NCBI GenBank assembly: GCA_000435175.1
Contig: FR880046.1
Coordinates: forward strand, 47,271-111,270
DNA: 64,000 bases
Direction: 5' to 3'
Source: Clostridium sp. CAG:245
Lineage (GTDB): Bacteria; Bacillota; Clostridia; TANB77; CAG-508
Shown one piece after another: positions 2,099 through 57,564 of this stretch; the stretch's first letter is position 1, and every line of letters begins with the position of its first letter. A program made the translations under genes and the position numbers. The notes under the pieces were generated by a model. It ran no database searches. It saw only the letters and a program-made list of their open reading frames with translations, and was not told the origin of the DNA.

Positions 2099-3578
2099 AT
2101 GAAAGACAATAGGTTATATCAAGACATAGCAAAAAGGACAGATGGCGATATTTATGTTGGTGTTGTTGGACCTGTAAGAACTGGTAAATCGACTTTCATA
2201 AAAAGATTTATGGATTTGCTAGTAATTCCAAACATAGACAATGAGTATAAAAAAGAGCGTGCACAAGATGAGTTGCCTCAAAGTGCCGGTGGCAGAACAA
2301 TTATGACTACAGAGCCAAAGTTTATTCCAAATGAAGCGGTACGGAATTACTGTTGGTGATAATATAAAGCTGAACGTAAGACTGGTTGATTGTGTTGGAT
2401 ATTTGGTTAATAATGCTATTGGATATTTGGAAGATGATATGCCAAGAATGGTAAAAACACCATGGTCAACAGAGGAAATTCCATTTGAACAAGCAGCTGA
2501 GATTGGAACTAAAAAGGTAATTCAAGAACATTCTACAATTGGAATATTGGTTACAACTGATGGAAGTGTGACTGGAATAGAAAGAGAAGATTACATAGAA
2601 CCAGAGGAACGTGTTGTAAAGGAATTAAAAGAACTAAATAAACCTTTTGTAATAGTATTAAATTCGGTAGAACCAGATTCTGAATATACACAAACATTAG
2701 CTCAAAAACTTCAAGAAAAATACGATACACAGGTAATTCCAACAGATTGTGAAAATTTAACTGTAGATAAAATTGATGAAATATTTGGCAAAGTATTATA
2801 TGAATTTCCAATAGAGCGAGTAAACATCAGTTTCCCAAGATGGGTTGATGGACTACCAGAAACACATTGGCTAAAAGAAGAATTATATGACGAAATCAAA
2901 GATGCGTTTAAAGACATAAAAATTCTAAAACAGATAGACAACCGAATAACCAAATTGCAGAATACTGAGGTAATATCAACAAGTATAATAAACGAAATAC
3001 AGCTAGGAACAGGAAGCATAAACATAACCATCAACTTATTAGATGACTTATTCTATAAGGTATTAACCGAAATTTCTGGAGTTCCAATAACAAACGAAGG
3101 TGAACTATTCTCTAGCATGATATCATTTGCAAATGTAAAGAAGGAATATGACAAAGTATCTACAGCATTGCAAGAAGTAAACACAAAAGGTTATGGAATA
3201 GTAAGCCCATCAATAGACGAATTAATATTAGAAGAGCCTGAAATGGTAAAACAAGGCACACGCTATGGAGTAAAACTAAGAGCAAAAGCACCATCAATAC
3301 ACATGATAAGAGCAGACATAGAAACAGAAGTATCTCCAATAGTAGGAAGCGAAAAACAATCACAGGAACTGGTAGAATCGTTACTTTCAGAATTCGAAAA
3401 CGATCCAAAGAAAATATGGGAATCAAATATATTTGGCAAGAGCCTGCACGAGCTAGTAAACGAAGGCTTGCAAACAAAACTAATGAAAATGCCAGAAGAT
3501 GCACAAGAAAAATTACAAGAAACATTAGAAAGAATAATAAACGAGGGAAGCGGAGGACTAATCTGCATAATATTATAA
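2099..3578 (+). CDS. spoIVA: Stage IV sporulation protein A (SpoIVA ATPase), split into ORFs 2099..2359 and 2331..3578 by an apparent single-base insertion near 2338-2345
   Basis: N-terminal fragment has the Walker A motif (GVVGPVRTGKSTFIKRFMDL) and the ELPQSAGGRTIMTTEPKF motif. The second frame continues with NVRLVDCVGY...PRMVKTPW...EAAEIGTKKVIQEHSTIG. Together ~492 aa, as in SpoIVA. Confidence 0.85.
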
Positions 3579-4381: not shown

Positions 4382-7060
4382 ATGAAAAGTACAAAGGAAA
4401 ATAAAGGAATTACAATTATTGCATTAATTATAACAATAGTAGTTTTATTGATACTCGCAGGAGTAACCATTGATTTAGTTGTTGGAAATGACAATTTGTT
4501 TGATAAGGCAAGGAGTACACAAAAGATACAAACGGTAGCGGGAATAAAAGAAGCGCTAGAGCTTGAAAAGGTGGATATACAAGTTGAGAGTAAGACAGTT
4601 GATTTGGATAATTATTTGGAGCAGATAAGTACAGGGAAAAAGAATTATGATTTAAGTTCTAAAGAAAAAATAGATAAAAAAAATGCCGAAATAATAATAA
4701 ATGATGAACATAAATTTTTAGTAAAAGATAAAGAAAATGGAGATGTAGAAATAATATATGAAGGAATAGCAAAAGCGAGTGATTTAACAATATCTCCGAA
4801 AAATGGAACATATACGTATCCAAATAGTGGAACATTTGAAGTAACAAATAATACATCAGGAGGAGAATTAACCGTAAGTTCAGATGCTCCAAACATAGCA
4901 ACAGCAAGTATTAAAGGAAACACAATAACAGTACAACCGGGAACAACAGCAGGAAAAGCAAATATAATAGTAAGAAGTGCAGCAAGTGGAGAATACGCAG
5001 AAAATAAAGCAATACATTTAGCAACAGTAGAAAATGGAACAATAGAATTAGAAGCAATTCCATATGAGGGAGTATATGATGGACAAGCACATAATGCATT
5101 TACGAGTATAAGTATAAACCCAAGCGATGCAAAATTAGAATACTCATTAGATGGAAACGAATATAATGAAAAAATGCCAACAATAACAAATACATCAGAA
5201 TTTACAGTAACAGTAAAGGCAAATAAAGAAGGCTATAAGACACAAATAACAACAGAAACAATAAGAGTAAATAAGGAAGAAGGAAAATTAACATTATCAT
5301 CAACAGATGGAACATATACATATCCAACAAGTGGAACGTTTACAGTAAGCGGAAATACAGGAGCATTAAGTGTTAGTTCTAATAACGATAATATAGCAAT
5401 AGTAAGTATAAATGGAAATACAGTAACAGTAAAGCCGGGAACGACAGCCGGAAAAGCAACAATTACGGTAACGAGTGCAGAAGCAAACAATTATAAAGAA
5501 AAGACAGCAACTCATGAAGCAACAGTACAAAATGGAACAATAACAATAAATGCAACACCTTACACAGGTACGTACGATGGAAAAGCACACAATGCATTTA
5601 CGAGCGTAACAACTGATCCAAGTGATGCAACAATAGAATATTCAATTGATGGAGGAAGTTATTCATCGACAATACCAACAATAACGAATACTTCATCATT
5701 TACAGTAACAATAAAAGCAAGCAAAGCAGGGTACAAGACACAAACGAAAACAGAAACAGTAAAAGTAAATAAGGCAGAAGGAAAATTAACATTGTCAGCG
5801 ACGAGTGGAACAATAACATATCCAAGTAACGCAACTTTTACAGTAAGTGGAAATACAGGAACATTAAGTGTTTCTTCAAATAATAACAATATAGCAACAG
5901 CAAGTGTAAGTGGAAATACTGTAACAGTAAAATCGGGAACAACCGTGGGAAAGGCAACAATAACAGTAACAAGTGCAGAAGCAAGCAATTATACAGCAAA
6001 ATCAGCAACATATACTGCAACAGTAAATAATGGAACAATAAGCTTAAGTGCAACACCATATAATGGAACATATGATGGAAAAGCACATAATGCATTAACA
6101 AATGTAAGTGCAAATCCAAGTGATGCAAAATTAGAATATTCAATAAATGGAGGCACATATAGCACAACAATGCCAACAATAACAAACACTTCATCATTCA
6201 CTGTAACAGTAAGAGCAAGCAAGGCAGGATACAAAACACAGACAACAACACAAACAACAAGAGTAAATAAAGCAACAGGAAGCATATCATTATCATCATA
6301 TAGCGGAACAATAACATATCCGAACACTGGAACGTTTTCTATAAGTGGAAATACTGGAACTCTAAGCGTGTCATCATCTAATACTAATGTGGCGACAGTA
6401 AGTTTAAATGGAACAACAGTAATAATAACTCCTAAAAAAACAGAAGGAACAACTACTATAACAGTAAAGAGCGCTGCAACATCGAATTACAATGAAAAAA
6501 CAGTAACGTATACTGCAACAGTTAAACTTCAAACATTTACACTTGATTCAGGAATAGGATATTATGCTGATATTGACGATAATGGTAGCGTAGATGGCAT
6601 AATATTTGGGGATAGAAAAAAAGGCGCAAGTGGTTCTTGGGGAAACAGAGATGGAAATTATAGTATTTCAACTAAAACGGGACTTAAGGAATATTATATA
6701 AGTCAAACAAATTATAAAGGTGCTTTCGGAACAAAAAATGTACTGTCCGCTAAAAGTTCTGGAAATGCAAGATTTTATGTAATGGCTTTATCAGATGCAA
6801 GTAGTAGTGGTTGGGCGTGGACAGAAGCACAAAAATTTAATGGGAATGGTTGGTCAGTTCCTTCAAGAAATGAATGGGCTGCTTTTGCAGGATTGTTAGG
6901 GATAACTTCATCTAATTATCAAAGTTATGGCTTGCAAAATCGTTACTGGGGATCATATATTAATGATGATTATTCTTGGGCATGTTTATTTTATAGTGGA
7001 AGAGTTGATAGCGTATATTTTAGTGATAGTGTGCATGTTAGACTGTCTACAATGTTTTAA
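4382..7060 (+). CDS. Large surface protein with a pilin-like hydrophobic N-terminus, four Big_2 (Ig-like) plus MBG (YDG-type) repeat units, and a C-terminal DUF1566/Lcl-like domain
   Basis: 892 aa. N-terminus KGITIIALIITIVVLLILAG resembles a prepilin/class III signal but lacks Glu5. A ~170-aa unit (VSSxxPNIATASIxGNTVTVxPGTTAGKATITV ... PYxGxYDGKAHNA ... YKTQT) repeats four times. The C-terminus has W-SVPSRNEW...YWGSY...VRL, the DUF1566 pattern. Confidence 0.8.
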   Translation: MKSTKENKGITIIALIITIVVLLILAGVTIDLVVGNDNLFDKARSTQKIQTVAGIKEALELEKVDIQVESKTVDLDNYLEQISTGKKNYDLSSKEKIDKKNAEIIINDEHKFLVKDKENGDVEIIYEGIAKASDLTISPKNGTYTYPNSGTFEVTNNTSGGELTVSSDAPNIATASIKGNTITVQPGTTAGKANIIVRSAASGEYAENKAIHLATVENGTIELEAIPYEGVYDGQAHNAFTSISINPSDAKLEYSLDGNEYNEKMPTITNTSEFTVTVKANKEGYKTQITTETIRVNKEEGKLTLSSTDGTYTYPTSGTFTVSGNTGALSVSSNNDNIAIVSINGNTVTVKPGTTAGKATITVTSAEANNYKEKTATHEATVQNGTITINATPYTGTYDGKAHNAFTSVTTDPSDATIEYSIDGGSYSSTIPTITNTSSFTVTIKASKAGYKTQTKTETVKVNKAEGKLTLSATSGTITYPSNATFTVSGNTGTLSVSSNNNNIATASVSGNTVTVKSGTTVGKATITVTSAEASNYTAKSATYTATVNNGTISLSATPYNGTYDGKAHNALTNVSANPSDAKLEYSINGGTYSTTMPTITNTSSFTVTVRASKAGYKTQTTTQTTRVNKATGSISLSSYSGTITYPNTGTFSISGNTGTLSVSSSNTNVATVSLNGTTVIITPKKTEGTTTITVKSAATSNYNEKTVTYTATVKLQTFTLDSGIGYYADIDDNGSVDGIIFGDRKKGASGSWGNRDGNYSISTKTGLKEYYISQTNYKGAFGTKNVLSAKSSGNARFYVMALSDASSSGWAWTEAQKFNGNGWSVPSRNEWAAFAGLLGITSSNYQSYGLQNRYWGSYINDDYSWACLFYSGRVDSVYFSDSVHVRLSTMF

Positions 7061-7380: not shown

Positions 7381-9132
7381 ATGAATAGAAAAAAATATGA
7401 GATTTATGAATCGAAGGAATATAACAACATTAGAGAGGTTCTTGATAATGCTTTTACAAATTACCCTGATAATGTTGCATTCAAATTAAAAGAAACAAAT
7501 GGCAAGCAGGTTACTTATAAAGAAATAAAGTACAAAGATTTTCAAAATGATATAAATGCTCTTGGAACAGCTTTAATTAATTTAGGACTAAAAGACAAAA
7601 GAGTTGCTATAATTAGCAAAAATAGATATGAGTGGATTCTATCATATGTTTCGGTTTTAAATGGCACAGGAATTGCAGTTCCACTAGATAAAGGATTGCC
7701 AGAAGAGGAGACAGAGTCATCTTTGCAAAGAAGTTATGCCGAGGCTATAATTTTTGCAAATGACTATATGGATACAATGAAAAAATTTAAGTCTTCTGGA
7801 GCAACAGATGTTACAAAATTTATTTGTATGGATCAGATTAGTGATGAAGAAAAAGAAGCTGGTTTCTTGTATTTAGGAGATTTAATAGAAGAAGGAAAGA
7901 AACTAGTTGAGAATGGCAATAGAGATTTTATAGATGCAAAAATTGATGATAACAAGATGAGTATTATTTTATTTACATCAGGAACAACTTCTAAGTCGAA
8001 AGCTGTAATGCTATCTCACAGAAATATAGCATCAAATATTTCTGCCATGAATAGAGTTGAACATTTTTTGAGTACTGATGTTAATATGGCTTTTTTGCCA
8101 TTTCACCATACTTTTGGTAGCACTGGAATTTTAATTTTTTTAAACCATGGTTGCACAAATGTATTTTGTGATGGAATTAGACATATACAAGCAAATATGA
8201 AGGAATATAAAGTAAGCATTTTTGTTTGTGTTCCACTTTTAATTGAGTCAATGTACAAGAAAATTGACAAAGAGATAAAAAAACAAGGAAAAGATAAATT
8301 AATAAAATTTGTGACTCCGATTAGTAATTTTTTATTGAAGTTCGGTATAGACATTAGAAGAAAAGTGTTCAAGAGTGTAATAGATAATTTAGGAGGAGCA
8401 TTAAGAGCAATTATAAGTGGAGCTTCTGGATTAGATCCAAAGGTTGCAAAGGCTTTTAATGACTTTGGTATATTAACAATTCAAGGATACGGATTAACAG
8501 AAACTTCACCAGTTTTAGCTGCTGAAAACGAAAATTGCATAAGGTATGGTTCAATTGGTTTTCCTATGCCAGGGGTTACTCTAAAAGTTGATAATCAAAA
8601 TGAACAAGGAATAGGAGAGCTTATTGCAAAAGGACCAAATGTTATGCTTGGATATTACGAGAATGAAGAAGCAACAAATGAAGCCATAAAAGATGGATGG
8701 TTTCATACAGGGGACCTTGCAAAACAAGATAAAGATGGATATTTCTTTATAACAGGTAGAAAAAAGAATGTTATAGTATTGAAAAATGGAAAGAACATAT
8801 ATCCAGAGGAACTAGAAACACTAGTAGGAAAACTTCCATATGTGGATGAATGTATGGTTTTTGGCTATCCAAAAGATGATGATTTGGTGATTTCTGTAAA
8901 GATTGTATATAACAAAGACTATGTAAAAGATAATTTTGCAGGATTTACTCAAGAACAATTAAAAGAAAAAATATGGGAAGATATTAAAGAAATAAATAGC
9001 GGACTTACAAACTACAAGCATATGAAAAAATTAATAATAACAGATGAGCCAATGATTAAAACATCAACAGCCAAGATAAAAAGACACGAAGAAATGAGTA
9101 AAATTTTAGCTGAGGAGGGTGCAATTAAATAG
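7381..9132 (+). CDS. Long-chain fatty acid--CoA ligase (AMP-forming acyl-CoA synthetase)
   Basis: AMP-binding signature FTSGTTSKSKAVMLSHRN, plus GYGLTETSP and TGDLAKQDKDGYFFITGRKKNVIVLKNGKNIYPEELE. Confidence 0.85.
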   Translation: MNRKKYEIYESKEYNNIREVLDNAFTNYPDNVAFKLKETNGKQVTYKEIKYKDFQNDINALGTALINLGLKDKRVAIISKNRYEWILSYVSVLNGTGIAVPLDKGLPEEETESSLQRSYAEAIIFANDYMDTMKKFKSSGATDVTKFICMDQISDEEKEAGFLYLGDLIEEGKKLVENGNRDFIDAKIDDNKMSIILFTSGTTSKSKAVMLSHRNIASNISAMNRVEHFLSTDVNMAFLPFHHTFGSTGILIFLNHGCTNVFCDGIRHIQANMKEYKVSIFVCVPLLIESMYKKIDKEIKKQGKDKLIKFVTPISNFLLKFGIDIRRKVFKSVIDNLGGALRAIISGASGLDPKVAKAFNDFGILTIQGYGLTETSPVLAAENENCIRYGSIGFPMPGVTLKVDNQNEQGIGELIAKGPNVMLGYYENEEATNEAIKDGWFHTGDLAKQDKDGYFFITGRKKNVIVLKNGKNIYPEELETLVGKLPYVDECMVFGYPKDDDLVISVKIVYNKDYVKDNFAGFTQEQLKEKIWEDIKEINSGLTNYKHMKKLIITDEPMIKTSTAKIKRHEEMSKILAEEGAIK

Positions 9133-9837: not shown

Positions 9838-9946
9838 CAAACCAAATTCATTTTTTTAAACCTCGGCACATCGCTCTTGGTAGGAACCCCTTAGGACTTC
9901 TCAAAAGGCGAGTTTGACCTTGTTTATCAAAATGAAATTTGGTTTG
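9838..9946. other. Structured intergenic element, copy A: 17-bp stem (CAAACCAAATTCATTTT / AAAATGAAATTTGGTTTG) enclosing a conserved core CGCTCTTGGTA...AAAGGCGAGTTTGACCTTGTTT
   Basis: Long inverted repeat flanks a ~70-nt loop. The core matches the reverse complement of the element at 40223..40307, while the stem sequences differ. Candidate ncRNA or small mobile element. Confidence 0.5.
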
Positions 9947-17884: not shown

Positions 17885-19109
17885 ATGCAATTTGAAGAGA
17901 AGGAATATAGAATGGATTTTGAGAAGATTATTTTAAATACATTGTTAGATAAATACGAGGCTAGCAAGGCTTTATATGAAACTTCTAATAGAAGAATCAT
18001 ATTAAAAATGAAGAATCTAACTGGTTATAATATTGAAAATTATGATAGAAAACAGATAATTCATGATGTGATATTTGAGTTAAAAAAAGAAGGCATAATA
18101 GATTTTTCTTGGCAAAAATACGAGAAGCGGAAACATAATAGAAGAAATTTGGTTAAATAAAGAAAATGTGGAATGGGCATATGAAAAGGCTAATAGAACA
18201 AATGTAAAAGAAAATATTGAGCTATTATTGAAAATACTAGAAGAAGCGGAATTTAATCAAGAGTGGATAAATGAGTACAAACAAAACATGATAAATTATT
18301 TGAAAGAAAAGCATAAAACAAATAATTTGTTTCCTGTTCAATTTGCACAAGATATTTTGCTGGTGTTAAAACAGATTGATAACAAAGAAGAAAATTTAAA
18401 ACGTGTATTAAGTATAAAATGCTTTGGAGATTCTAAATATTTTGAGAGAAATATAGAACACATTCTAATAAGAATTATTAAAACATATTTGCTTGAAAAG
18501 GCAGAAGAATATAGTAATGATGATATCTTATTAGAAGTAGGAATATCAAAATATCCCGAAATCTTTGAATTTTGTGGAGACATGGAATATTACATAGACG
18601 ATGAAAAAATAGAGTACAAAAAAGAAACTATGGGAAGCTATTTGAATAGTTATAATGTAGAAAAAATGACAAATTTGACAATTAAGAATGCAAGAAAAAT
18701 ATTATTCATAGAAAATAAAGCTAACTATATAGATTATATTCAAAACAAGCAAGAAAGTGATGAATTTGTAATATATCATGGTGGAATGTATAGTCCACTA
18801 AAAGGTAAATTCTTTAAAAAAATATATGAAGCCTGCGAAAACCAAGAATTTTATCATTGGAGTGACATAGATATTGGTGGATTTAGAATATTTACGAGAC
18901 TTAAAAAAATTATACCAGAACTACAAGAATATAAAATGGATACAGAAGCATTTTTAGCTAAAAAAGAATATTGGAAAGAAATGAATCAAGACTATAGAAA
19001 AAGGCTACAACAATTAAGAGGATCGGCAGAGTATGAGACTTTTTATGAAGTGATTGACGCAATGTTAGAGAACAATAGCAAATTAGAACAAGAAGCATTT
19101 ATATTATAA
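17885..19109 (+). CDS. jetD: Wadjet system Toprim nuclease JetD (MksG-like), split into ORFs 17885..18160 and 18168..19109 by an apparent frameshift
   Basis: C-terminal part has Toprim/DUF2220 motifs (ILFIENKANY; YHWSDIDIGGFRIF). The 91-aa upstream ORF in another frame supplies the missing N-terminal domain (91+313 aa, about 400 aa like JetD). The second ORF starts with GTG. Confidence 0.75.
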
Positions 19110-19357
19110 ATTAGGTAAAGGTCAAGCCTCATAAATAGGTAACTATTAAATACATTTGATAAAATGGAAAAATATTACAATATTTCAAACCGAAGCATTG
19201 ACAAAATGAATAAAAATGATATATAATGAATATACTAAAGAAGCAATTGAAAGATTGCTGATAGGAGTTCATAAAGAACGATTTGAAATTAGGTAAAGTT
19301 CAAGCCTCATAAATGAACTGTAATGAAATTAGGTAATGCTTAAGCCTTATAAATAAG
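19109..19357. repeat. Three copies of a ~31-nt repeat AATTAGGTAAaGnTCAAGCCTcATAAATa (19109..19139, 19287..19317, 19327..19357); the last two are tandem with a 40-nt period
   Basis: Read directly. Copy 1 abuts the jetD stop. Copies 2 and 3 lie downstream of a TTGACA-17-TATAAT promoter (19198..19226), in the leader of a 30-codon ORF and yebC. Confidence 0.55.
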
Positions 19358-19552
19358 CAGTGATAAAATAGGGAGTATATAAGTGGTAACACATGTACTC
19401 TCTTATTTTGTGCAGAAAAGAGGTTAGATGAAAGAATTATTTAAAATTTTAATAAAATACTACCCAAATGGCAAAATTTGTGGTAAAATAAAAAATGTAA
19501 TTTTTACGAGAAATAAATAATGGCTAAAAGCCAATAAGAAGGAGGAGTTAAA

Positions 19553-20281
19553 ATGTCAGGTCATAGCAAATGGCATAATATTCAAGCTAAAAAAGGTAAA
19601 GCTGATGCAGCAAGAGGTAAAGTATTCACAAAATTAGGAAGAGAATTATTAATAGCAGTAAAGCAAGGTGGACCTGACCCGGCTGGAAACTCTAAATTAA
19701 AAGATGTAATTGCAAAATGTAAGGCAGCAAACATGCCAAACGATACAATAAACAATGCAATTAAGAAAGCATCTGGAGCTGGAAACGCAGAAAACTATGA
19801 AGAAGTTATATATGAAGGATATGGACCAAACGGTGTTGCTGTTATAGTAGAAGCAAGTACAGATAACAGAAATAGAACAGCAGCAGATGTAAGACACGTA
19901 TTTGATAGAGCCGGTGGAAACTTAGGAACAACAGGTTGTGTTTCTTACATGTTCAATAAAAAAGGTGTAATGGTTGTAGATAAAGCAGAATGCAAACAAT
20001 CAGAAGATGATTTAATGATGATTGCATTAGATGCAGGGGCAGAAGATTTTGAGGCTGATGAAGAATGTTACACAATTACAACAACACCTGAAGACTTTTC
20101 AAGTGTAAGAGAAACTCTAGAAGGCCAAGGAATAGAATTCTTAGAAGCAGAGGTTCAAATGGTTCCAACAACATATGTTGCATTAGATGAAAAAGCTCAA
20201 GAAAGAATGGATAAATTATTAGAAAATCTTGATGAATTAGATGATGTTATGAACGTTTACCACAATAGTGAAAATAATTAA
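19553..20281 (+). CDS. yebC: YebC/PmpR family DNA-binding transcriptional regulator
   Basis: [31 protein letters not shown]... is the hallmark YebC N-terminus. 242 aa. Strong RBS AGGAGG. Confidence 0.9.
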
Positions 20282-27955: not shown

Positions 27956-28226
27956 AAATGTAATTAAAATATAGCAATAAAAGTACTAATTCATAGAAAA
28001 TTTGAAACATGCTTTGTAAAATGGAATTAAGAGTATAACAAAGTAATGAAGTAATATTTTAAAGTATGAACTAGTACTTTTTAAGTTTCATATTATTACA
28101 AAATATTACATATTATTACAAATTAATAATTTTAGCAAAAACACTTGATAAATATCCTAATTACATATATAGTATTCATCAGCAAAAATATAAATATGAT
28201 TTACATAAATGGAGGAGTAACAGTAA

Positions 28227-28780
28227 TGGGAATTATTAATGTTTATACAGGACCAATGAAATGCGGCAAAAGTCAGAAGATATTTAATGAATTAAAGAGA
28301 CAATTAATTGCAGGAAAGAACATTAAGGTATTTAAACCATTATTAGACAATAGAGCAGGAGATGCAGTAATATCAACAAGAGCAGGCAATTCAATAAATG
28401 CTATAAATATTCAGAGCATAAATGAGCTTGAAAAATATGATGCAGATTCATATTTTATTGATGAATTTCAATTTTTAAAAGGAGATATTCAAACAATAGA
28501 TAAAATGGCTGCAGAAGGAAAAAAATTTTATATAGCTGGATTAAATTTAACATCAGAAAAGAAAACATTTGGTAAAATGGGAGATTTAATGTGTATTGCT
28601 GATAATATTGAGATGATGACTTCTATATGTGAAATTTGTAAGAGCGAAGAAGCTATATTTACATATTATAAAGGACAAAAAGACACAGACATTATGGTTG
28701 GAGACGCAGAATATATACCTGTTTGTAGAGAATGCTATAATAAACTGATGAAACATATGCCATTTGAAATCGCCCAATAG
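28227..28780 (+). CDS. tdk: Thymidine kinase
   Basis: P-loop GPMKCGKS and a C-terminal zinc ribbon (CEICKSE...CRECY). Start chosen at the ATG after the GGAGG RBS rather than the upstream ORF-track start. Confidence 0.85.
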
Positions 28781-28800
28781 GGACGCCCCTTTTTGGGCGA
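28771..28800 (+). repeat. GC-rich palindromic hairpin element, copy 1 (CGCCCAATAGGGACGCCCCTTTTTGGGCGA); supplies the tdk stop codon
   Basis: 7-10-bp stem (t)CGCCCAA/TTGGGCG(a) around a 15-nt loop. The TAG of tdk lies inside the element (...IAQ*). Confidence 0.7.
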
Positions 28801-29605: not shown

Positions 29606-30877
29606 ATGGAAGAAAAGGCACAATTTGGAATTGGATTTGTGTCAGGCAGACCGAATGTTTGCGCTGTTATAAACAACACATATAAGCATTTATTAAATCA
29701 AACTAAAAAGTTTGATAGAGAGGTTGAGTTAACGATATTCATATTGTATGATTTAAGTTACCAAAAAGAATCTAGAGAAGAAGATTTTTATAAAATATTA
29801 CCAGAGGTACATAAAGATATAAAAATTGTTCATATTACTCCCCAATTAATAGAGGAGCAAAAATCAGGATTAGTTAAAGAGAAAATAATAACTATGGACG
29901 AAGCCAATTTATTCTTCGGCTATGGCTATGCAAAAGCAAGGAATACACTGCTATATAATGCGGTAATTAATGGAATTGATTATTTTTTATACTGGGATGA
30001 TGACGAATACCCAGTAGCATGTATTAAGAATAATACGAACGAAAACATTAAATGGAAGGCACAAAATAATATATTAGGGCATTTGGAGAACATAGAAAAT
30101 GCTGATATTACTTTCGGACATAGATGCGGATATAATTCGCCACTTCCATATATGGAATTAAAAAATCCATTTCATGAGCGTAGAATAAAGTCTTTTATAG
30201 AGGCTGTAAAAAATGAATTTATGACGTGGAAAGATGTTAAAGAATATTTGTCAAAAAATGATGGAATTGCCTATGCTGATGAAGAATTAATGAAAAAGAA
30301 AACTGTGAGTGAAATACAAATCCAAGGAACGCATAAACGTATATTGGGATCTCCATTGTGCCTAAACTTGAAACATTTAGAAAAAATTCCGGCATTTTAT
30401 AATCCGGAAGGGGCAAGAGGAGAAGATGCATTCTTTTCTTTGTTATTGAATGAAAACAAAGTGGTAAGTGTACCGGTTTATCATTTTCATGACCCATTTA
30501 TAAAATTTAATAATGTTTTAGAAGGAAAGTATCCAAGGAAAATAGATAAAACAAAATCTAACGATAAAAGCGTTGAACAGAGATTTTATAAGGTGGCTAG
30601 AGGCTGGATTAAATACAGACCTTTATATTTGTATGCAACTAATAGAGAAAATTATGAAAAAGAAATAAAGAAAACAGTAAAAAATTTAAAGAGAGGCATT
30701 CCAGCAATGAATAAAATGTTTAAAGATAAAGACTTTAACATTTTATTGGAAGACCTAGAAAAATATAATTCAAATGTAAAACAAGATTATGAAGATTTTC
30801 AACATGTACAAGTTGTTTGGAAAAAGTTGAAAAAAACAATTACTGAAAATAATAAAAAACTTGTAATCGCCCAATAG
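29606..30877 (+). CDS. Hypothetical protein, possible GT-A-like glycosyltransferase (YWDDDEY motif)
   Basis: 423-aa ORF immediately upstream of a GT8 glycosyltransferase. C-terminal ...LVIAQ* and stop come from hairpin element copy 2. Confidence 0.45.
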   Translation: MEEKAQFGIGFVSGRPNVCAVINNTYKHLLNQTKKFDREVELTIFILYDLSYQKESREEDFYKILPEVHKDIKIVHITPQLIEEQKSGLVKEKIITMDEANLFFGYGYAKARNTLLYNAVINGIDYFLYWDDDEYPVACIKNNTNENIKWKAQNNILGHLENIENADITFGHRCGYNSPLPYMELKNPFHERRIKSFIEAVKNEFMTWKDVKEYLSKNDGIAYADEELMKKKTVSEIQIQGTHKRILGSPLCLNLKHLEKIPAFYNPEGARGEDAFFSLLLNENKVVSVPVYHFHDPFIKFNNVLEGKYPRKIDKTKSNDKSVEQRFYKVARGWIKYRPLYLYATNRENYEKEIKKTVKNLKRGIPAMNKMFKDKDFNILLEDLEKYNSNVKQDYEDFQHVQVVWKKLKKTITENNKKLVIAQ

Positions 30878-30897
30878 GGACGCCCCTTTTTGGGCGA
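30868..30897 (+). repeat. GC-rich palindromic hairpin element, copy 2; supplies the stop codon of the 29606..30877 gene
   Basis: Identical 30-mer CGCCCAATAGGGACGCCCCTTTTTGGGCGA. The TAG at 30875..30877 is inside it. Confidence 0.7.
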
Positions 30898-30911
30898 AAA
30901 GAGGAGAGAAT

Positions 30912-31769
30912 ATGGGAGAGAAGGCTTATTTTACGACTTTATCAACAGAAAATTATTTACCAGGAGTTATTGCACTAAATCAAGCATTAAAAAATGTGCA
31001 TTCTAAATATCCATTATATGCATTACTTAGCAACGAGATTTCTGAAGAGATAGAAGAAAAATTAAATAAAAAAGGTATAAAAACTATAAGAAGAGAAAAA
31101 GTTGACTTGCCTCAAGAAATAATAGATAGAAACAGGTCAAGGGCAAAGAATAGATGGAATTACACTTTTGATAAACTAAATATTTTTGAACTAACAGATT
31201 TCGAAAAAATTGTATTTATAGATAGTGACATTTATGTAAGACAAAACATAGATTGTTTATTTGATAAACCACATATGTCAGCCGTAATAGATAAACATTA
31301 TGGTCCAAATTTAACGTGCAGATGCTTGGAGCTTACATCTGGGGTTATTGTAGTAGAACCTAGAAAAGGACAAATTGAAAAATTTAAAGAAATAATAAAA
31401 ACAATAATAGACAAACGAGATGCAATAGGGGATCAAGATATATTGCAGGAATATGACCATGAGTGGAAAAATAAACCTGAGTTACATCTAAAAAATAAAT
31501 ATAATATATTCTTTCCATATCTAGAGTACTATGTAAACTTTCAAGAATATTCGATGGATGACTTAGCTGTAATTCACTTTATATATCCATGGAAACCTTG
31601 GATGCTTGATAAAGAAAACAGAGTTAACGAATATGTTGAATACATAGATGGATTTACGAAAGAATGCTATGAAGAAGAAAAAGCTCCAGAATACATAGAT
31701 TGCTTATATGGAGATCGTAGACACGCTAAAAAGATTGTAGAAGAATATTGCAAACTAATTGAAGAGTAA
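30912..31769 (+). CDS. Glycosyltransferase family 8 protein (glycogenin/LPS galactosyltransferase-like)
   Basis: N-terminal YFTTLSTENYLPGVIALNQAL and DxD motif IVFIDSDIYV typical of GT8. Confidence 0.8.
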   Translation: MGEKAYFTTLSTENYLPGVIALNQALKNVHSKYPLYALLSNEISEEIEEKLNKKGIKTIRREKVDLPQEIIDRNRSRAKNRWNYTFDKLNIFELTDFEKIVFIDSDIYVRQNIDCLFDKPHMSAVIDKHYGPNLTCRCLELTSGVIVVEPRKGQIEKFKEIIKTIIDKRDAIGDQDILQEYDHEWKNKPELHLKNKYNIFFPYLEYYVNFQEYSMDDLAVIHFIYPWKPWMLDKENRVNEYVEYIDGFTKECYEEEKAPEYIDCLYGDRRHAKKIVEEYCKLIEE

Positions 31770-37099: not shown

Positions 37100-37804
37100 A
37101 TGGAAAATAATATAATAGAGAATAATATAACAATAGGAATAGAAGGACTAGTTGGAGCTGGCAAAACATCAATTTGTAGGGAATTATTAGACAAAATACC
37201 TAATAGTATAATATTACATGGTGGCAATTTATATAGAGGAATTGTATTTGCATTAATGTCTTCAGGAGCTGACATGAATAAGATTATGCATGGAACAGAT
37301 AAACCAATTGATATAAAGCAAATGATGGATATATTAAAAGTAGAATTGAAAATAGAAAATAGAGAAAGTGTTGTTTATGTTGATGGAAAAGAAATAAATG
37401 AAGAAAGTTTACAATCAGACACAACATCAATGGCAGTTTCTAAAATTGCAAAAGATGCTGATAACACAAAATTCTACATATTTGGAAGAAAATTAATAGA
37501 TGCATATAAAAAGCAATATAATCTAATAATATCAGGTAGAGACTTAATGAAAATTTATCCTGAGCTAGATTATCATTTCTTCGTAACAGCAGATATAGAT
37601 ACAAGAGTAGATAGAAAAATGCATCAATATGAAAATGAAACAATAACAAGAGAAGAATTGAAAAAACATATTGAAGAAAGAGATATGTTGCAGGAGCAAG
37701 CCGGCTTCTACAAGAGATACAGCAAAACAATTGATGTTGATGTAACAGAATGCAAGAATGCAGAAGAATCGGCTATGAAAATATTAGAAAAGATTGCTCA
37801 ATAA
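37100..37804 (+). CDS. Cytidylate kinase-like P-loop kinase
   Basis: IGIEGLVGAGKTS P-loop, NLYRG and IISGRDLMKIYPELDYHFFVTADIDTRVDRK resemble the Cmk lid and NMP-binding regions. Could alternatively be a deoxynucleoside kinase. Confidence 0.55.
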   Translation: MENNIIENNITIGIEGLVGAGKTSICRELLDKIPNSIILHGGNLYRGIVFALMSSGADMNKIMHGTDKPIDIKQMMDILKVELKIENRESVVYVDGKEINEESLQSDTTSMAVSKIAKDADNTKFYIFGRKLIDAYKKQYNLIISGRDLMKIYPELDYHFFVTADIDTRVDRKMHQYENETITREELKKHIEERDMLQEQAGFYKRYSKTIDVDVTECKNAEESAMKILEKIAQ

Positions 37805-37810
37805 AATATT

Positions 37811-37840
37811 TCGCCCCCAAAGGGGCGTCCCTAATGGGCA
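37811..37840 (-). repeat. GC-rich palindromic hairpin element, copy 3 (reverse orientation, slightly diverged)
   Basis: TCGCCCCCAAAGGGGCGTCCCTAATGGGCA is the reverse complement of the consensus with 3 differences. Sits between the kinase-like gene and murD. Confidence 0.6.
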
Positions 37841-37863
37841 AAAAACTAAAAAGGAGTTTAAGT

Positions 37864-40222: not shown

Positions 40223-40307
40223 AAAATACATCTTATTTTGAAAAACAAGGTCAAGCTCGCCTTTTACCAAGAGCGCCGTACCGAAGTTAAAAAAATAAGA
40301 TGTATTT
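40223..40307. other. Structured intergenic element, copy B: perfect 16-bp stem AAATACATCTTATTTT enclosing a core homologous (as reverse complement) to the element at 9838..9946
   Basis: The loop reverse complement reads CGGTACGGCGCTCTTGGTAAAAGGCGAGCTTGACCTTGTTTTTC. Copy A reads CGGCACATCGCTCTTGGTA[21-nt insert]AAAGGCGAGTTTGACCTTGTTTATC. Confidence 0.5.
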
Positions 40308-52738: not shown

Positions 52739-53329
52739 ATGAAAAAACAAACAATTATCGCAATAGTTATTGCAGTAATCGTAGTTCTTGCAATTACAAT
52801 AGGAGTAGTTGTAGAAAATAGTAAAAAAACAAAAGGAGAAAGTAGTACAATAGAGACAGCTTCTCAAATGAAGGCAATGTTTAAATCTATCTATAATAAA
52901 TTAGGAGATGAATTGCCAGATTTAGAAACAGCTAAAATTGATGTAAGTGATGCCTTAGCTGTAAAAGATTATACAGGTTTGCAATCAAACGAAAATGTAG
53001 AAACACTTGTTGTATCTGAACCATCAATGTCTTCACAAGCATATTCAGCAGTTGCAGTAAAAGTAAAATCGGGTGCTAATGTAGAAAAGATGAAACAAGA
53101 AATGCTAGACAATATCGACATGGCAAAATGGATTTGTGTTTCAGCTAGTAACTTATATATAACAAACAGCGGAAATACAATATTTATGGTAATGTCAGAC
53201 GAAGACTGGGCAAAACCAGTATATGAAGCATTTAAAGAATATGTAAATAATAATATAGGAAAAGAATTAGAAAAGGTATCTGATGAGGAAGATATAGAAC
53301 TACCACCAGAAATGCCAGCAGTAATGTAA
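52739..53329 (+). CDS. Hypothetical membrane-anchored/secreted protein
   Basis: N-terminal signal/TM (MKKQTIIAIVIAVIVVLAITIGVVV) plus a soluble domain. Confidence 0.5.
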   Translation: MKKQTIIAIVIAVIVVLAITIGVVVENSKKTKGESSTIETASQMKAMFKSIYNKLGDELPDLETAKIDVSDALAVKDYTGLQSNENVETLVVSEPSMSSQAYSAVAVKVKSGANVEKMKQEMLDNIDMAKWICVSASNLYITNSGNTIFMVMSDEDWAKPVYEAFKEYVNNNIGKELEKVSDEEDIELPPEMPAVM

Positions 53330-53335
53330 AAATTT

Positions 53336-53365
53336 CGCCCAATAGGGACGCCCCTTTTTGGGCGG
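53336..53365 (+). repeat. GC-rich palindromic hairpin element, copy 4
   Basis: CGCCCAATAGGGACGCCCCTTTTTGGGCGG, followed by a T7 run. Confidence 0.7.
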
Positions 53366-53396: not shown

Positions 53397-53426
53397 CGCC
53401 CCCAAAAGGAGCGTCCCTATTGGGCG
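53397..53426 (-). repeat. GC-rich palindromic hairpin element, copy 5 (reverse orientation), forming an inverted pair with copy 4 around a 31-bp AT-rich spacer
   Basis: CGCCCCCAAAAGGAGCGTCCCTATTGGGCG is the reverse complement of the consensus. Directly followed by the AGGAGG RBS of the MBOAT gene. Confidence 0.65.
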
Positions 53427-53438
53427 AAAGGAGGAAAC

Positions 53439-56217: not shown

Positions 56218-56269
56218 TTTTTAATAATTAGAAAATACTTGCATATAATAAAAATGTATATTATAATAT

Positions 56270-56400
56270 ATAAAGAATATGGTGTTGGTAATAAGGCAAT
56301 ACCAAAGGAGAAAAAATTCTCAAAAAAAGTTGGTGAATCCAGCCATAAAATTGGAACTTAAAAAAGGAAGGTTAGAGTGTAAAGCTCTAATCTTTTTTTT
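56270..56400 (+). ncRNA. Candidate type III antitoxin RNA: promoter (TTGCAT-17-TATAAT, 56237..56266), two degenerate ~44-nt pseudo-repeats, and an intrinsic terminator (TTAGAG...CTCTAA + T9) upstream of the toxN-like gene
   Basis: Architecture promoter - short non-coding transcript - terminator - ToxN-family gene. Pseudo-repeats GTTGGTAATAAGGCAATACCAAAGG... and GTTGGTGAATCCAGCCATAAAATTGG... (~60% identity). A second near-identical promoter copy (TTGCAA-18-TATAAT, 56421..56450) follows the terminator. Confidence 0.35.
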
Positions 56401-56477
56401 ACAAATTTTAGAAAAATACTTGCAAACATATGTACGTATGTGATATAATGCAGAAAATGTATAAGGAGCTGGTTGGT

Positions 56478-57002
56478 ATGATTAAAAATTTACAAATTAT
56501 AAGAGTGAATACAAATTATTGCGATTATTTAAGAAAATTTGATTCAAGAGTAGCCTACAATATGAATGAAAAAGAGATTAGACCTTTTGTAGGAATATTA
56601 TTCAAGATAGAAGATTGCGAATATTTTGCACCACTATCTAGTCCAAAGTCGAAACACAAGAAAATGAAAAATACCATTGATTTTCTAAAGATAAAAAACG
56701 GTGAACTTGGAGCTGTGAATTTTAATAACATGATTCCTGTAAAAAGTGATTATTACTCTATTATTGATTTAAATCAATCAACTTTAACTCTAAATGAAGC
56801 AAAATACCAGAAACTATTAAAAGAACAATTAGCTTGGTTAAACGCAAATTATATTCAAGTAAAAGATAAATCATATAAATTATATACTTTATATAACAAA
56901 GGAAAACTGCCAGAAACCATGAGAGAAAGATGTTGTAATTTTAAGCTACTAGAAGAAAAATGTTTAAAATATACTATTATAGATAGGAGTTTACATGGAT
57001 AA
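56478..57002 (+). CDS. toxN: Type III toxin-antitoxin system toxin, ToxN/AbiQ family endoribonuclease
   Basis: Matches ToxN throughout: YCDYLRKFDSRV (ToxN YIEYLKEFDDKV), FVGILFKIEDCEYFAPLSSPKSKH (ToxN FIGIVLEIQGHKYLAPLTSPKKWH), NNMIPV, and C-terminal CCNFKLLEEK (ToxN CDFAVLEEK). Start after the AAGGAG RBS. Confidence 0.75.
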   Translation: MIKNLQIIRVNTNYCDYLRKFDSRVAYNMNEKEIRPFVGILFKIEDCEYFAPLSSPKSKHKKMKNTIDFLKIKNGELGAVNFNNMIPVKSDYYSIIDLNQSTLTLNEAKYQKLLKEQLAWLNANYIQVKDKSYKLYTLYNKGKLPETMRERCCNFKLLEEKCLKYTIIDRSLHG

Positions 57003-57543
57003 TAAAAAAAGATGCAAGTGGTGCAATATGAAGAATTCACTATATATAAAATATCATGATGAGGAATGGTGCAAACCGAACTTTGATGAGAAATATTTAT
57101 ATGAGATGCTTATATTAGAGTCTTTTCAAGCTGGACTTTCTTGGGAGTGTGTACTAAATAAAAGACAAGCCTTTGAGATGGCTTATGATAACTTTAACAT
57201 AGAAAAAGTATGCCAATATGATGATGAAAAAGTCATAGAACTGCAACAAAATAAAAAGATAATTAGAAATAAATTAAAGATAAAAGCAAGCATAAACAAT
57301 TCTAAAATATTTAAGAATATACAAAAAGAATTTGGCTCGTTCAATAACTATTTAAAGACTTTCACAGATGGCAAAACATACTATGAAATAGATAAGACAA
57401 CATCTCCAATTTCTGATGCTATCTCAAAAAACCTACAAAAAAGAGGAATGAAATTTGTAGGTTCAACAATAATATATTCATATTTACAGGCAATAGGAGT
57501 GATTATATCTCATGATAAAGATTGTTTTCTTTTCGCCCAATAG
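56995..57543 (+). CDS. tag: DNA-3-methyladenine glycosylase I
   Basis: YHDEEWCKP, LILESFQAGLSW and IIRNKLKIKASINNSK motifs. Stop codon donated by hairpin element copy 6. Confidence 0.9.
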   Translation: MDNKKRCKWCNMKNSLYIKYHDEEWCKPNFDEKYLYEMLILESFQAGLSWECVLNKRQAFEMAYDNFNIEKVCQYDDEKVIELQQNKKIIRNKLKIKASINNSKIFKNIQKEFGSFNNYLKTFTDGKTYYEIDKTTSPISDAISKNLQKRGMKFVGSTIIYSYLQAIGVIISHDKDCFLFAQ

Positions 57544-57564
57544 GGACGCCCCTTTTTGGTCGAT
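57535..57564 (+). repeat. GC-rich palindromic hairpin element, copy 6; supplies the tag stop codon
   Basis: CGCCCAATAGGGACGCCCCTTTTTGGTCGA (one mismatch in the 3' arm). The TAG at 57541..57543 is inside it (...LFAQ*). Confidence 0.65.

Follow-up and report, generated by a model that had tools for sequence, protein, structure and literature searches.

A 31-nt GC-rich imperfect palindrome, TCGCCCAATAGGGACGCCCCTTTTTGGGCGA, lies at gene boundaries in a 64-kb stretch of DNA from Clostridium sp. CAG:245 (64,000 nucleotides of contig FR880046.1, here called the window), and three of its six copies there give unrelated genes their last residues and stop codon. With a probability of about 70%, this element represents a previously undescribed family of short (31-35 nt) GC-rich imperfect palindromes, similar to repetitive extragenic palindromic (REP) sequences, that occupies gene boundaries in AT-rich gut Clostridia and whose register at protein ends is kept by selection.

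The element and the proteins it ends

Exact matches of its proteins assign the window to Clostridium sp. CAG:245. In a window with a GC content of 30%, the element stands out by composition. Four copies lie on the plus strand, two of them exact and two with one mismatch, where 0.00 exact or one-mismatch plus-strand matches are expected from shuffles; the minus strand carries one further copy and one degenerate copy (Table 1). In a position-weight scan of the window, built from approximately 100 copies, exactly these six and nothing else exceed the shuffle maximum. The predicted structure is a nested hairpin, in which an outer stem of 8 bp (TCGCCCAA/TTGGGCGA) is followed by a bulge of one to two bases, an inner 4-bp stem (AGGG/CCCT) and a four-base loop. 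Its predicted RNA fold has an energy of approximately -20 kcal/mol (z about -4 to -5), and its predicted DNA fold one of -12 kcal/mol in either orientation. Translation of the element yields a stop codon in frame 3 of the sense strand only (TAG, positions 9-11) and none on the antisense strand.

The sense copy at 53335 and the antisense copy at 53397 form an inverted dimer with a 31-nt spacer, and the pair is predicted to fold as one long stem (~45-bp duplex, -60 kcal/mol, z -10). A known RNA family was rejected because the window has no match in Rfam 15 at gathering thresholds; around this pair, permissive thresholds give only sub-threshold matches to generic long hairpins (miRNA precursors). 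On the transcribed (+) strand, a terminator consensus scan of the window flags the 53335 copy only, and the reverse strands of the 53335 and 37811 copies are flagged too.

The open reading frames (ORFs) of tdk, which encodes thymidine kinase (TK), of a 423-aa conserved hypothetical gene and of tag, which encodes 3-methyladenine DNA glycosylase I, have the TAG of the element as their stop codon and read into it as xTC GCC CAA TAG. An earlier note on this DNA had proposed that the element provides these three genes with their last residues and stop in the same register, and the ORF ends and the sequence agree. The 53335 copy, which that note left out, supplies neither residues nor stop to its upstream gene. 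A fourth gene, resembling cytidylate kinase (cmk-like), had been said to owe its end to a half-copy. It does end ..KIAQ (C-terminal residues are written here up to the stop codon), from AAG ATT GCT CAA TAA, 6 nt before an inverted, antisense copy. Because this end is the only match to the pattern TYGCYCAATAR outside a full copy (six matches in the window, against 0.36 expected), a relic half-copy is a plausible origin on the letters of the sequence. A precedent is found at locus L047, where a 13-nt partial 5ʹ copy precedes a full copy and supplies ..IFAQ to a flavoprotein gene. Every member read of the 90% identity cluster of the cmk-like protein ends ..KIAQ, and neither these members nor extra contigs show variation that would date that end.

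Outside the window, the loci compared are 8-kb excerpts of metagenome-assembled genomes (MAGs) in which genes were called by a longest-ORF heuristic, and orthologous copies inflate some of the counts. A long ORF is ended by the element's TAG at 13 copies, which correspond to eight independent genes. Five of these genes lie outside the window and are unrelated, which answers the earlier note's question of whether other copies end ORFs in the same frame: they encode RuvA (..AIAQ), TrpRS (..YFAQ), a GltD-like oxidoreductase (..IFAQ), a PBP transpeptidase (..IFAQ) and an FAD-dependent protein (..ILAQ). The residue before Ala-Gln is set by the flanking base at -1, with T giving Phe, A giving Ile and C giving Leu. 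In five further independent cases, the gene's own TAA directly abuts the element. Approximately 80% of copies are intergenic and overlap no gene, and none of the ~100 unique copies is found inside a credible gene; in the major alleles, only positions 1-11 are translated. Apparent read-throughs in other frames occur in representative genomes. Where checked (L009/L037, L034 and L027), they proved to be shadows on the strand opposite a real gene, such as typA or radA; those in L010, L029 and L002 are short or low-complexity ORFs and are not among the ones shown to be such shadows.

Judged from orthologous proteins, the -AQ ends are derived from the element and not ancestral, since element-free orthologues have other ends. 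When the 120 best homologues were taken for each protein, AQ ends were found in only 5 for TK, 6 for Tag and 2 for the 423-aa family. Tag orthologues without the element, at 76-93% identity, end ..SHDKxCFLYKSN, ..CFLYKEK, ..CFMNIKKENTK and similar; in the tag DNA alignment, the element begins right after a CTT (Leu) codon, and relatives run on for 2-8 variable codons. For the 423-aa protein, the nearest orthologue that lacks the element is P0244, which is 85% identical and comes from locus L075. It ends ..TEKEFV, the stop codon of its gene overlaps the start of the downstream GT8 gene (ATGA), and at this junction the window has ~51 nt extra, element included. TK relatives at 80-90% identity have short tails (..CYEKMKKEER) or an extension of ~35 residues ending ..LVNDFSYQCHF. 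The Pfam domains of element-terminated proteins are intact to 3-13 residues from the end. In these alignments, the replaced part is only a short, naturally variable tail, the last 2-3 codons.

The alternative is that the -AQ ends are ancestral or convergent and that the element is a common intrinsic terminator that evolved independently after each gene. Although some copies with T-runs score as terminator-like, exact 31-nt identity at unrelated loci has an expectation of 0.00 by chance, a T-run is found at less than half of sense copies, and antisense copies sit in 5ʹ leaders. Ancestral -AQ ends are ruled out by the C-termini of the element-free tdk, tag and 423-aa relatives, the comparison that the earlier note had named as able to refute its reading, and the alternative as a whole retains next to no probability.

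Two of these proteins have variable architectures beyond the element. Many TK orthologues (P0006-P0069, 77-89% identity) carry a C-terminal extension of ~35 residues with a variable linker and a conserved end, ..GK[IV]LVNDFxYQ[CY]HF, which is absent from the window TK (28226-28780) and other relatives. A remnant of this extension 3ʹ of the element was looked for, with no convincing similarity found. The 423-aa gene and the GT8 glycosyltransferase gene (29606-31769) are apart in the window with the element between them, overlap by ATGA in L075 (442-2546) and are fused in other relatives into one protein of 708-715 aa (P0257/P0258). These varied separate, overlapping and fused arrangements suggest that the two proteins work together.

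The earlier note had taken the constant frame to mean that the element replaced native 3ʹ ends. The ends are indeed derived, but the frame shows no targeted insertion: because the sole stop-containing frame lies in one orientation, a constant register is not evidence of it. Instead, the register is best explained as survivorship under selection on copies that overlap gene ends, and not as frame-aware insertion. This explanation agrees with every case examined, including several deviant alleles. In L076 (P0002, a TK 96% identical to that of the window), a 19-nt deletion just upstream makes TK read through the element in frame 1 (..NKLKSPNRDAPFWAS..) to 226 aa. In L080 and L081 (P0124, from a cluster of 231 sequences), the element occupies the same tag junctions with its centre inverted, and Tag ends ..CFLFAPKGASLLGD (..FAPKGASLLGD) at a TAG in the right flank. 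In L082 (P0122), the element is a symmetrised left-left palindrome with one extra C, and Tag has a tail longer by 23 residues. Such flipped or shifted alleles are rare and lengthen Tag or TK by 8-40 residues.

Distribution, orientation and turnover

An exact 21-mer from the element has 88 matches in 71 stretches of 17 species-level reference genomes, with 1-17 exact copies per genome. When up to 4 mismatches are tolerated in the left 20 nt, the number of copies rises to 123, of which 100 have distinct flanks. Their consensus over positions -2 to +33 reads ttTCGCCCAATAGGGACGCCCCTTTTTGGGCGAaa, and each core position is conserved at 86% or more. The genomes with the 21-mer are uncultured gut 'Clostridia' or 'Clostridium sp.' MAGs, plus two bins labelled otherwise, CAVFFR01 (Bacteroidaceae; loci L026 and L043) and CAKUZI01 (Melainabacteria; locus L028). 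Because the flanks checked are closely similar to Clostridia MAGs (L028 ~97% and L043 ~95% identical), comparison of the sequences points to mislabelled or contaminated bins rather than spread across phyla. A phage or plasmid origin was rejected because no match to the element was found in phage, plasmid and virus collections (INPHARED, PLSDB and IMG/VR), and a 19-mer of the element does not occur in the literature searched. L031 (~7700-7775), L043 (~3344-3400), L005 (~3140-3200) and L047 (~156-200) carry arrays in which the 5ʹ part of the element, 13-23 nt long (TCGCCCAATAGGGACGCCCCTTT units), is repeated in tandem, with the 3ʹ arm on the last unit only. The form of these arrays suggests slippage or repeated partial copying at the gene-proximal end.

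The element is placed according to its orientation, with its TAG-bearing end facing an ORF. Positions were classified for copies between co-directional genes, by a simple ORF-based gene call. Sense copies start -11 to +24 nt from the upstream stop in 41 of 46 cases, and the 24 antisense copies mostly end 0-4 nt before the downstream Shine-Dalgarno sequence, 18 of them within 20 nt of the called start. In spacers of at least 100 nt, the copies beside the stop number 27 of 32 in the sense and 0 of 16 in the antisense orientation (Fisher p = 9e-9). Copies between divergent genes are few, 5 of the 81 classified. A T-run follows within 4 nt at 21 of 46 sense and 3 of 24 antisense copies. Some single genes, ileS, pheT and radA among them, are bracketed by an antisense copy 5ʹ and a sense copy 3ʹ. 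A function as a back-up stop in tandem with the natural one was rejected because the distances d between stop and element (0, 2-10 nt) are not enriched for d = 1 mod 3, which would put the two in frame.

All 23 close pairs consist of a sense copy followed by an antisense copy, with the TAG-bearing ends outward, although some pairs are orthologous and not all are independent. Such an arrangement resembles terminal inverted repeats, and the element could be read as a classical miniature inverted-repeat transposable element (MITE), in which the 31-nt sequences are the ends of a longer unit (sense, spacer, antisense) moved by a DDE transposase and solo copies are half-elements. Solo copies do keep the outer end beside the flanking gene. 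However, most copies are solo, and the spacers, anywhere between 11 and 300 nt long, have no relation to one another unless the loci are orthologous. A search for target-site duplications found none, and the phage, plasmid and virus collections gave no match. Moreover, between dnaK and dnaJ the sense copy is universal, whereas antisense copies occur in only 2 of 12 species. A MITE is therefore a most improbable account.

Conservation was measured at the dnaK-dnaJ spacer. A sense copy lies 4-14 nt after the dnaK stop in 12 species-level genomes, and the variable columns across these species number 2 of 31 in the element, 10 of 16 among third-codon positions of the last 16 dnaK codons and 31 of 31 in the next 31 nt of spacer; the mean pairwise identities are 0.99, 0.74 and 0.35, respectively. 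Elsewhere, copies are gained and lost between related genomes, as filled and empty orthologous sites indicate (L027/L018, L017/L060 and window/L075).

Copies also invert in place. The element at L010 (652-682) and that at L028 (938-968) have flanks 97% identical and the same junctions, with opposite orientation, and a second inversion is seen at the tag locus, where L080 (~2040-2070) differs from the window copy at 57533-57563. What inverts is the 15-nt centre, and the 8-nt arms on either side stay fixed. Of ~100 copies, L082 is the only perfect-palindrome derivative. Compensatory stem changes are isolated cases, such as T1C with A31G, and the copies are too uniform for covariation support. 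Flips occur, yet the position of a copy almost perfectly predicts its orientation. As the stems themselves are perfect palindromes, something besides hairpin stability must read the asymmetric centre.

A probable tolerated repeat or a possible boundary signal

In the favored explanation, a REP-like family whose register is kept by selection, a copy would arise or recombine a few bases into a dispensable C-terminal tail. In the sense orientation and the TAG frame, it would end the protein after 2-3 foreign residues ([I/F/L]-A-Q), which would be tolerated; in other frames or the flipped orientation, it would add 8-40 residues and be purged by selection, leaving a constant register. By analogy with REP sequences, the transcribed hairpin probably serves as a 3ʹ-end barrier, a partial terminator or an operon punctuation mark, and an antisense copy before a Shine-Dalgarno sequence would form a structured leader on the transcript. 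Spread may have occurred by a transposase-like process or by recombination or template switching.

Several observations weigh against this explanation. Among 1335 open frames from the window and 82 loci, a crude search for HUH/Y..NP motifs reveals no transposase or RAYT-like gene, and the genes bracketed by copies are all housekeeping genes. No target-site duplication is visible on comparison of filled and empty sites, though those empty sites are much diverged, and the element is without the terminal unpaired GTAG/CGTC tag of the described REP superfamilies. Conservation between dnaK and dnaJ is far above the need of a hairpin-only role, and compensatory variation in the stems is not seen beyond isolated cases. 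Because the stems are perfect palindromes, an RNA hairpin cannot account for the strict orientation rule. Furthermore, a terminator or stabiliser role is drawn by analogy, with a T-run at less than half of sense copies.

In an unlikely alternative, the element is neither selfish nor REP-like. It would be a signal dedicated to marking gene boundaries, and a host factor acting in trans, whether an RNase, a DNA-binding factor or an RNA-binding protein, would recognize it. The asymmetric centre of the element would then be under purifying selection, and stop donation would be a by-product of abutting an ORF. Consistent with such a signal, the copy after dnaK retains 31/31 identity across 12 species beside a scrambled spacer, the orientation rule is strict despite demonstrable flips, and perfect-palindrome derivatives are nearly absent among ~100 copies. 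Additionally, antisense copies abut Shine-Dalgarno sequences, a sense and antisense pair makes a duplex of ~45 bp, and no transposase was seen by the crude motif scan or among the bracketed genes. However, copies are gained and lost between related genomes, and partial, tandem 5ʹ and degenerate copies occur as they would if a repeat were decaying. Genomes have a modest and variable number of exact copies, from 1 to 17, no candidate factor was identified, and concerted evolution among copies could also give the conservation.

More doubtful still is a lineage-specific punctuation system, in which a trans-acting factor would read the asymmetric centre, with sense copies marking coding ends and antisense copies translation starts. 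A pair might form an RNase III-type duplex that separates cistrons, although RNase III-type processing of the ~45-bp sense and antisense duplex is speculation, and reversible flips would toggle both the signal and the end of Tag (..FAQ or ..FAPKGASLLGD). Were this true, the element would be a small-scale switch on housekeeping genes, resembling phase variation.

The copies in the window and the genes that end at or near them are collected in Table 1.

Table 1. Copies of the element in the window and the genes that end at or near them
Feature	Coordinates	Strand	Details
tdk, thymidine kinase, 184 aa	28226..28780	+	Pfam PF00265, 2e-33; ends ..CYNKLMKHMPFEIAQ; identical to P0001 / CDA59371.1
Sense copy, exact	28770..28800	+	TAG 28778-28780 is the tdk stop; supplies the last two bases (TC) of an Ile codon, then Ala, Gln and the stop; hairpin predicted at -20.5 kcal/mol (z -4.5)
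423-aa conserved hypothetical gene	29606..30877	+	No Pfam match; ends ..KKLVIAQ
Sense copy, exact	30867..30897	+	TAG 30875-30877 is the stop of the 423-aa gene; 14 nt 5ʹ of the GT8 start codon (30912), just 5ʹ of its Shine-Dalgarno sequence
Cytidylate-kinase-like gene, 234 aa	37100..37804	+	Pfam PF02224, 2.7e-21; ends ..KILEKIAQ
Probable relic, gene-proximal 11 nt of a sense copy	37794..37804	+	TTGCTCAATAA against TCGCCCAATAG; would give the cmk-like gene its ..IAQ end
Antisense copy, slightly degenerate	37811..37841	-	Minus strand reads TTGCCCATTAGGGACGCCCCTTTGGGGGCGA; sits 3ʹ of the cmk-like stop and 5ʹ of the Shine-Dalgarno sequence and start codon (37864) of murD
Sense copy, one mismatch	53335..53365	+	5 nt past the TAA of ORF 52739-53329, in another frame; flanks lengthen the stem, then T-run; terminator-like; -25.4 kcal/mol
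Antisense copy	53397..53427	-	Ends 11 nt before the ATG of the MBOAT gene (53439), abutting its Shine-Dalgarno sequence
tag, 3-methyladenine DNA glycosylase I, 182 aa	56995..57543	+	Pfam PF03352, 6.6e-65, residues 9-178; ends ..SHDKDCFLFAQ
Sense copy, one mismatch	57533..57563	+	TAG 57541-57543 is the tag stop; T-run 5 nt beyond the element; L064 and L038 share the junction, L080 and L081 have the element flipped

Other features of the window lie apart from the element. A ToxN-family type III toxin gene (56430-57002, plus strand; PF13958, 7.8e-49) overlaps the start of tag by 8 nt. Upstream of it (56220-56430) are near-identical promoter-like boxes, ttagaaaa(a)tacttgca, at ~56228 and ~56408, and a terminator-like hairpin at 56373-56400. 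Because no ToxI-like tandem repeats are present in this upstream region, the antitoxin RNA of the gene, if any, is atypical. A second, unrelated repeat family of ~75-95 nt occupies two intergenic regions, at 9852-9945 (plus strand) and 40223-40300 (minus strand); the two copies are ~84% identical and inverted, and at gathering thresholds neither matches Rfam. A unit of 33-45 nt, AAATTAGGTAAxGxTxAAGCCTxATAAAT, is present in three copies at 19108-19370 in the long leader of ORF 19553-20281 and may be a repeated protein- or RNA-binding motif. Finally, an 892-aa ORF at 4382-7060 (plus strand) contains three to four tandem repeats of 498 nt (166 residues) with 61-76% identity and likely encodes a repetitive surface protein.

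Relation to known repeat families

In its general features, the element matches REP sequences, being a short, dispersed, mostly intergenic imperfect palindrome with a preferred site just 3ʹ of ORFs. It bears a close likeness to the GTAG/CGTC superfamilies, imperfect palindromes of 20-40 nt that are dispersed mostly between co-directional or convergent genes and are probably transcribed (Di Nocera et al. 2013, PMC3733652). Like the element, they usually begin <20 bp past the 3ʹ end of one ORF, with a variable distance to the next ORF downstream, they occur as singletons and as inverted dimers (20-100 bp spacers), and their TAG-bearing terminus can supply the stop codon of a flanking ORF (PMC3733652). 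However, the ends of the element are paired, with ATAG found only in the internal bulge and GACG only in the apical loop, and its architecture is one of two nested stems. Its host is a Firmicute, and that survey lists none (PMC3733652). Copies of the element number tens per genome, those of REP sequences hundreds, many antisense copies of the element abut Shine-Dalgarno sequences, and its dimers have their tags outward and spacers that are variable rather than conserved.

REPINs, which are associated with RAYT (Bertels and Rainey 2011, PMC3116915; PMC3337134), share with the element inverted doublets that fold into one long hairpin, long persistence by vertical descent and a conserved family consensus. 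Unlike REPINs, the doublets of the element have no conserved length or spacer, and a crude motif scan of the window and 82 loci found no RAYT (an IS200-like Y1 transposase) near any copy. The element is thus a new REP-like family of a known kind and is filed outside both the GTAG/CGTC superfamilies and the REPIN/RAYT systems because it has no terminal tag, tens of copies, unconserved spacers and no RAYT-like ORF seen in that motif scan, and because its host is a Firmicute, of which the survey lists none.

From MITEs in general, the element differs in that its pairs are without conserved internal sequence and that no target-site duplication is visible at the diverged filled and empty sites. In Coxiella burnetii, copies of QMITE1 and QMITE2 extend 1-50 bp into functional genes at the 3ʹ end, and an upstream indel decides the C-terminal extension of EnhC, as seen for enhC in Dugway and RSA 493 (Wachter et al. 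2018, PMC5896051). Such overlaps confer C-terminal residues or a stop as the element does, and the enhC indel parallels the TK allele with a 19-nt deletion. In contrast to the element, QMITEs are MITEs of far greater length that have both terminal inverted repeats and direct repeats; their registers vary, and there is no single donated tripeptide plus stop (PMC5896051). The earlier note had presented a repeat that shapes protein C-termini as rare; with REP termini that give TAG stops and MITEs that overlap 3ʹ ends already published (PMC3733652, PMC5896051), stop donation by palindromic repeats is documented and involves no new principle.

The element and the palindromic elements of Rickettsia are alike as palindromic repeats that add residues without destroying proteins. 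As Ogata and colleagues reportedly described in 2000, the Rickettsia elements are ~100-150 bp long, lie inside genes and are translated as inserts of 30-50 residues. They are also mentioned in PMC3733652 and PMC10969869. By comparison, the element is translated for 2-3 codons at the extreme C-terminus only, and 0 of ~100 copies is internal to a gene, so the analogy drawn by the earlier note is weak in both size and translation inside genes.

The flips of the element recall a mutational process. Template switching within an imperfect palindrome yields quasipalindrome mutations and small inversions of the hairpin loop. The inversions of the 15-nt centre (L010 compared with L028, and the tag locus) and the symmetrised L082 are products expected from it, whereas perfect palindromes are almost absent here, the asymmetric state being evidently restored or selected.

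For the annotation of Clostridium sp. CAG:245 and its relatives, a very abundant lineage of the human gut, -[I/F/L]AQ ends and tails of 8-40 residues are to be read as repeat-derived and not as conserved motifs, and gene-end calls at element sites depend on the state of the element. Compared with the known systems, what is new is the Firmicutes lineage, the strict orientation rule, the in-place flips with flip-dependent C-termini and the near-perfect dnaK-dnaJ conservation in 12 species. The element extends REP-like repeats to a low-GC Firmicute lineage and offers a compact natural system for the question of whether such repeats are selfish or functional.

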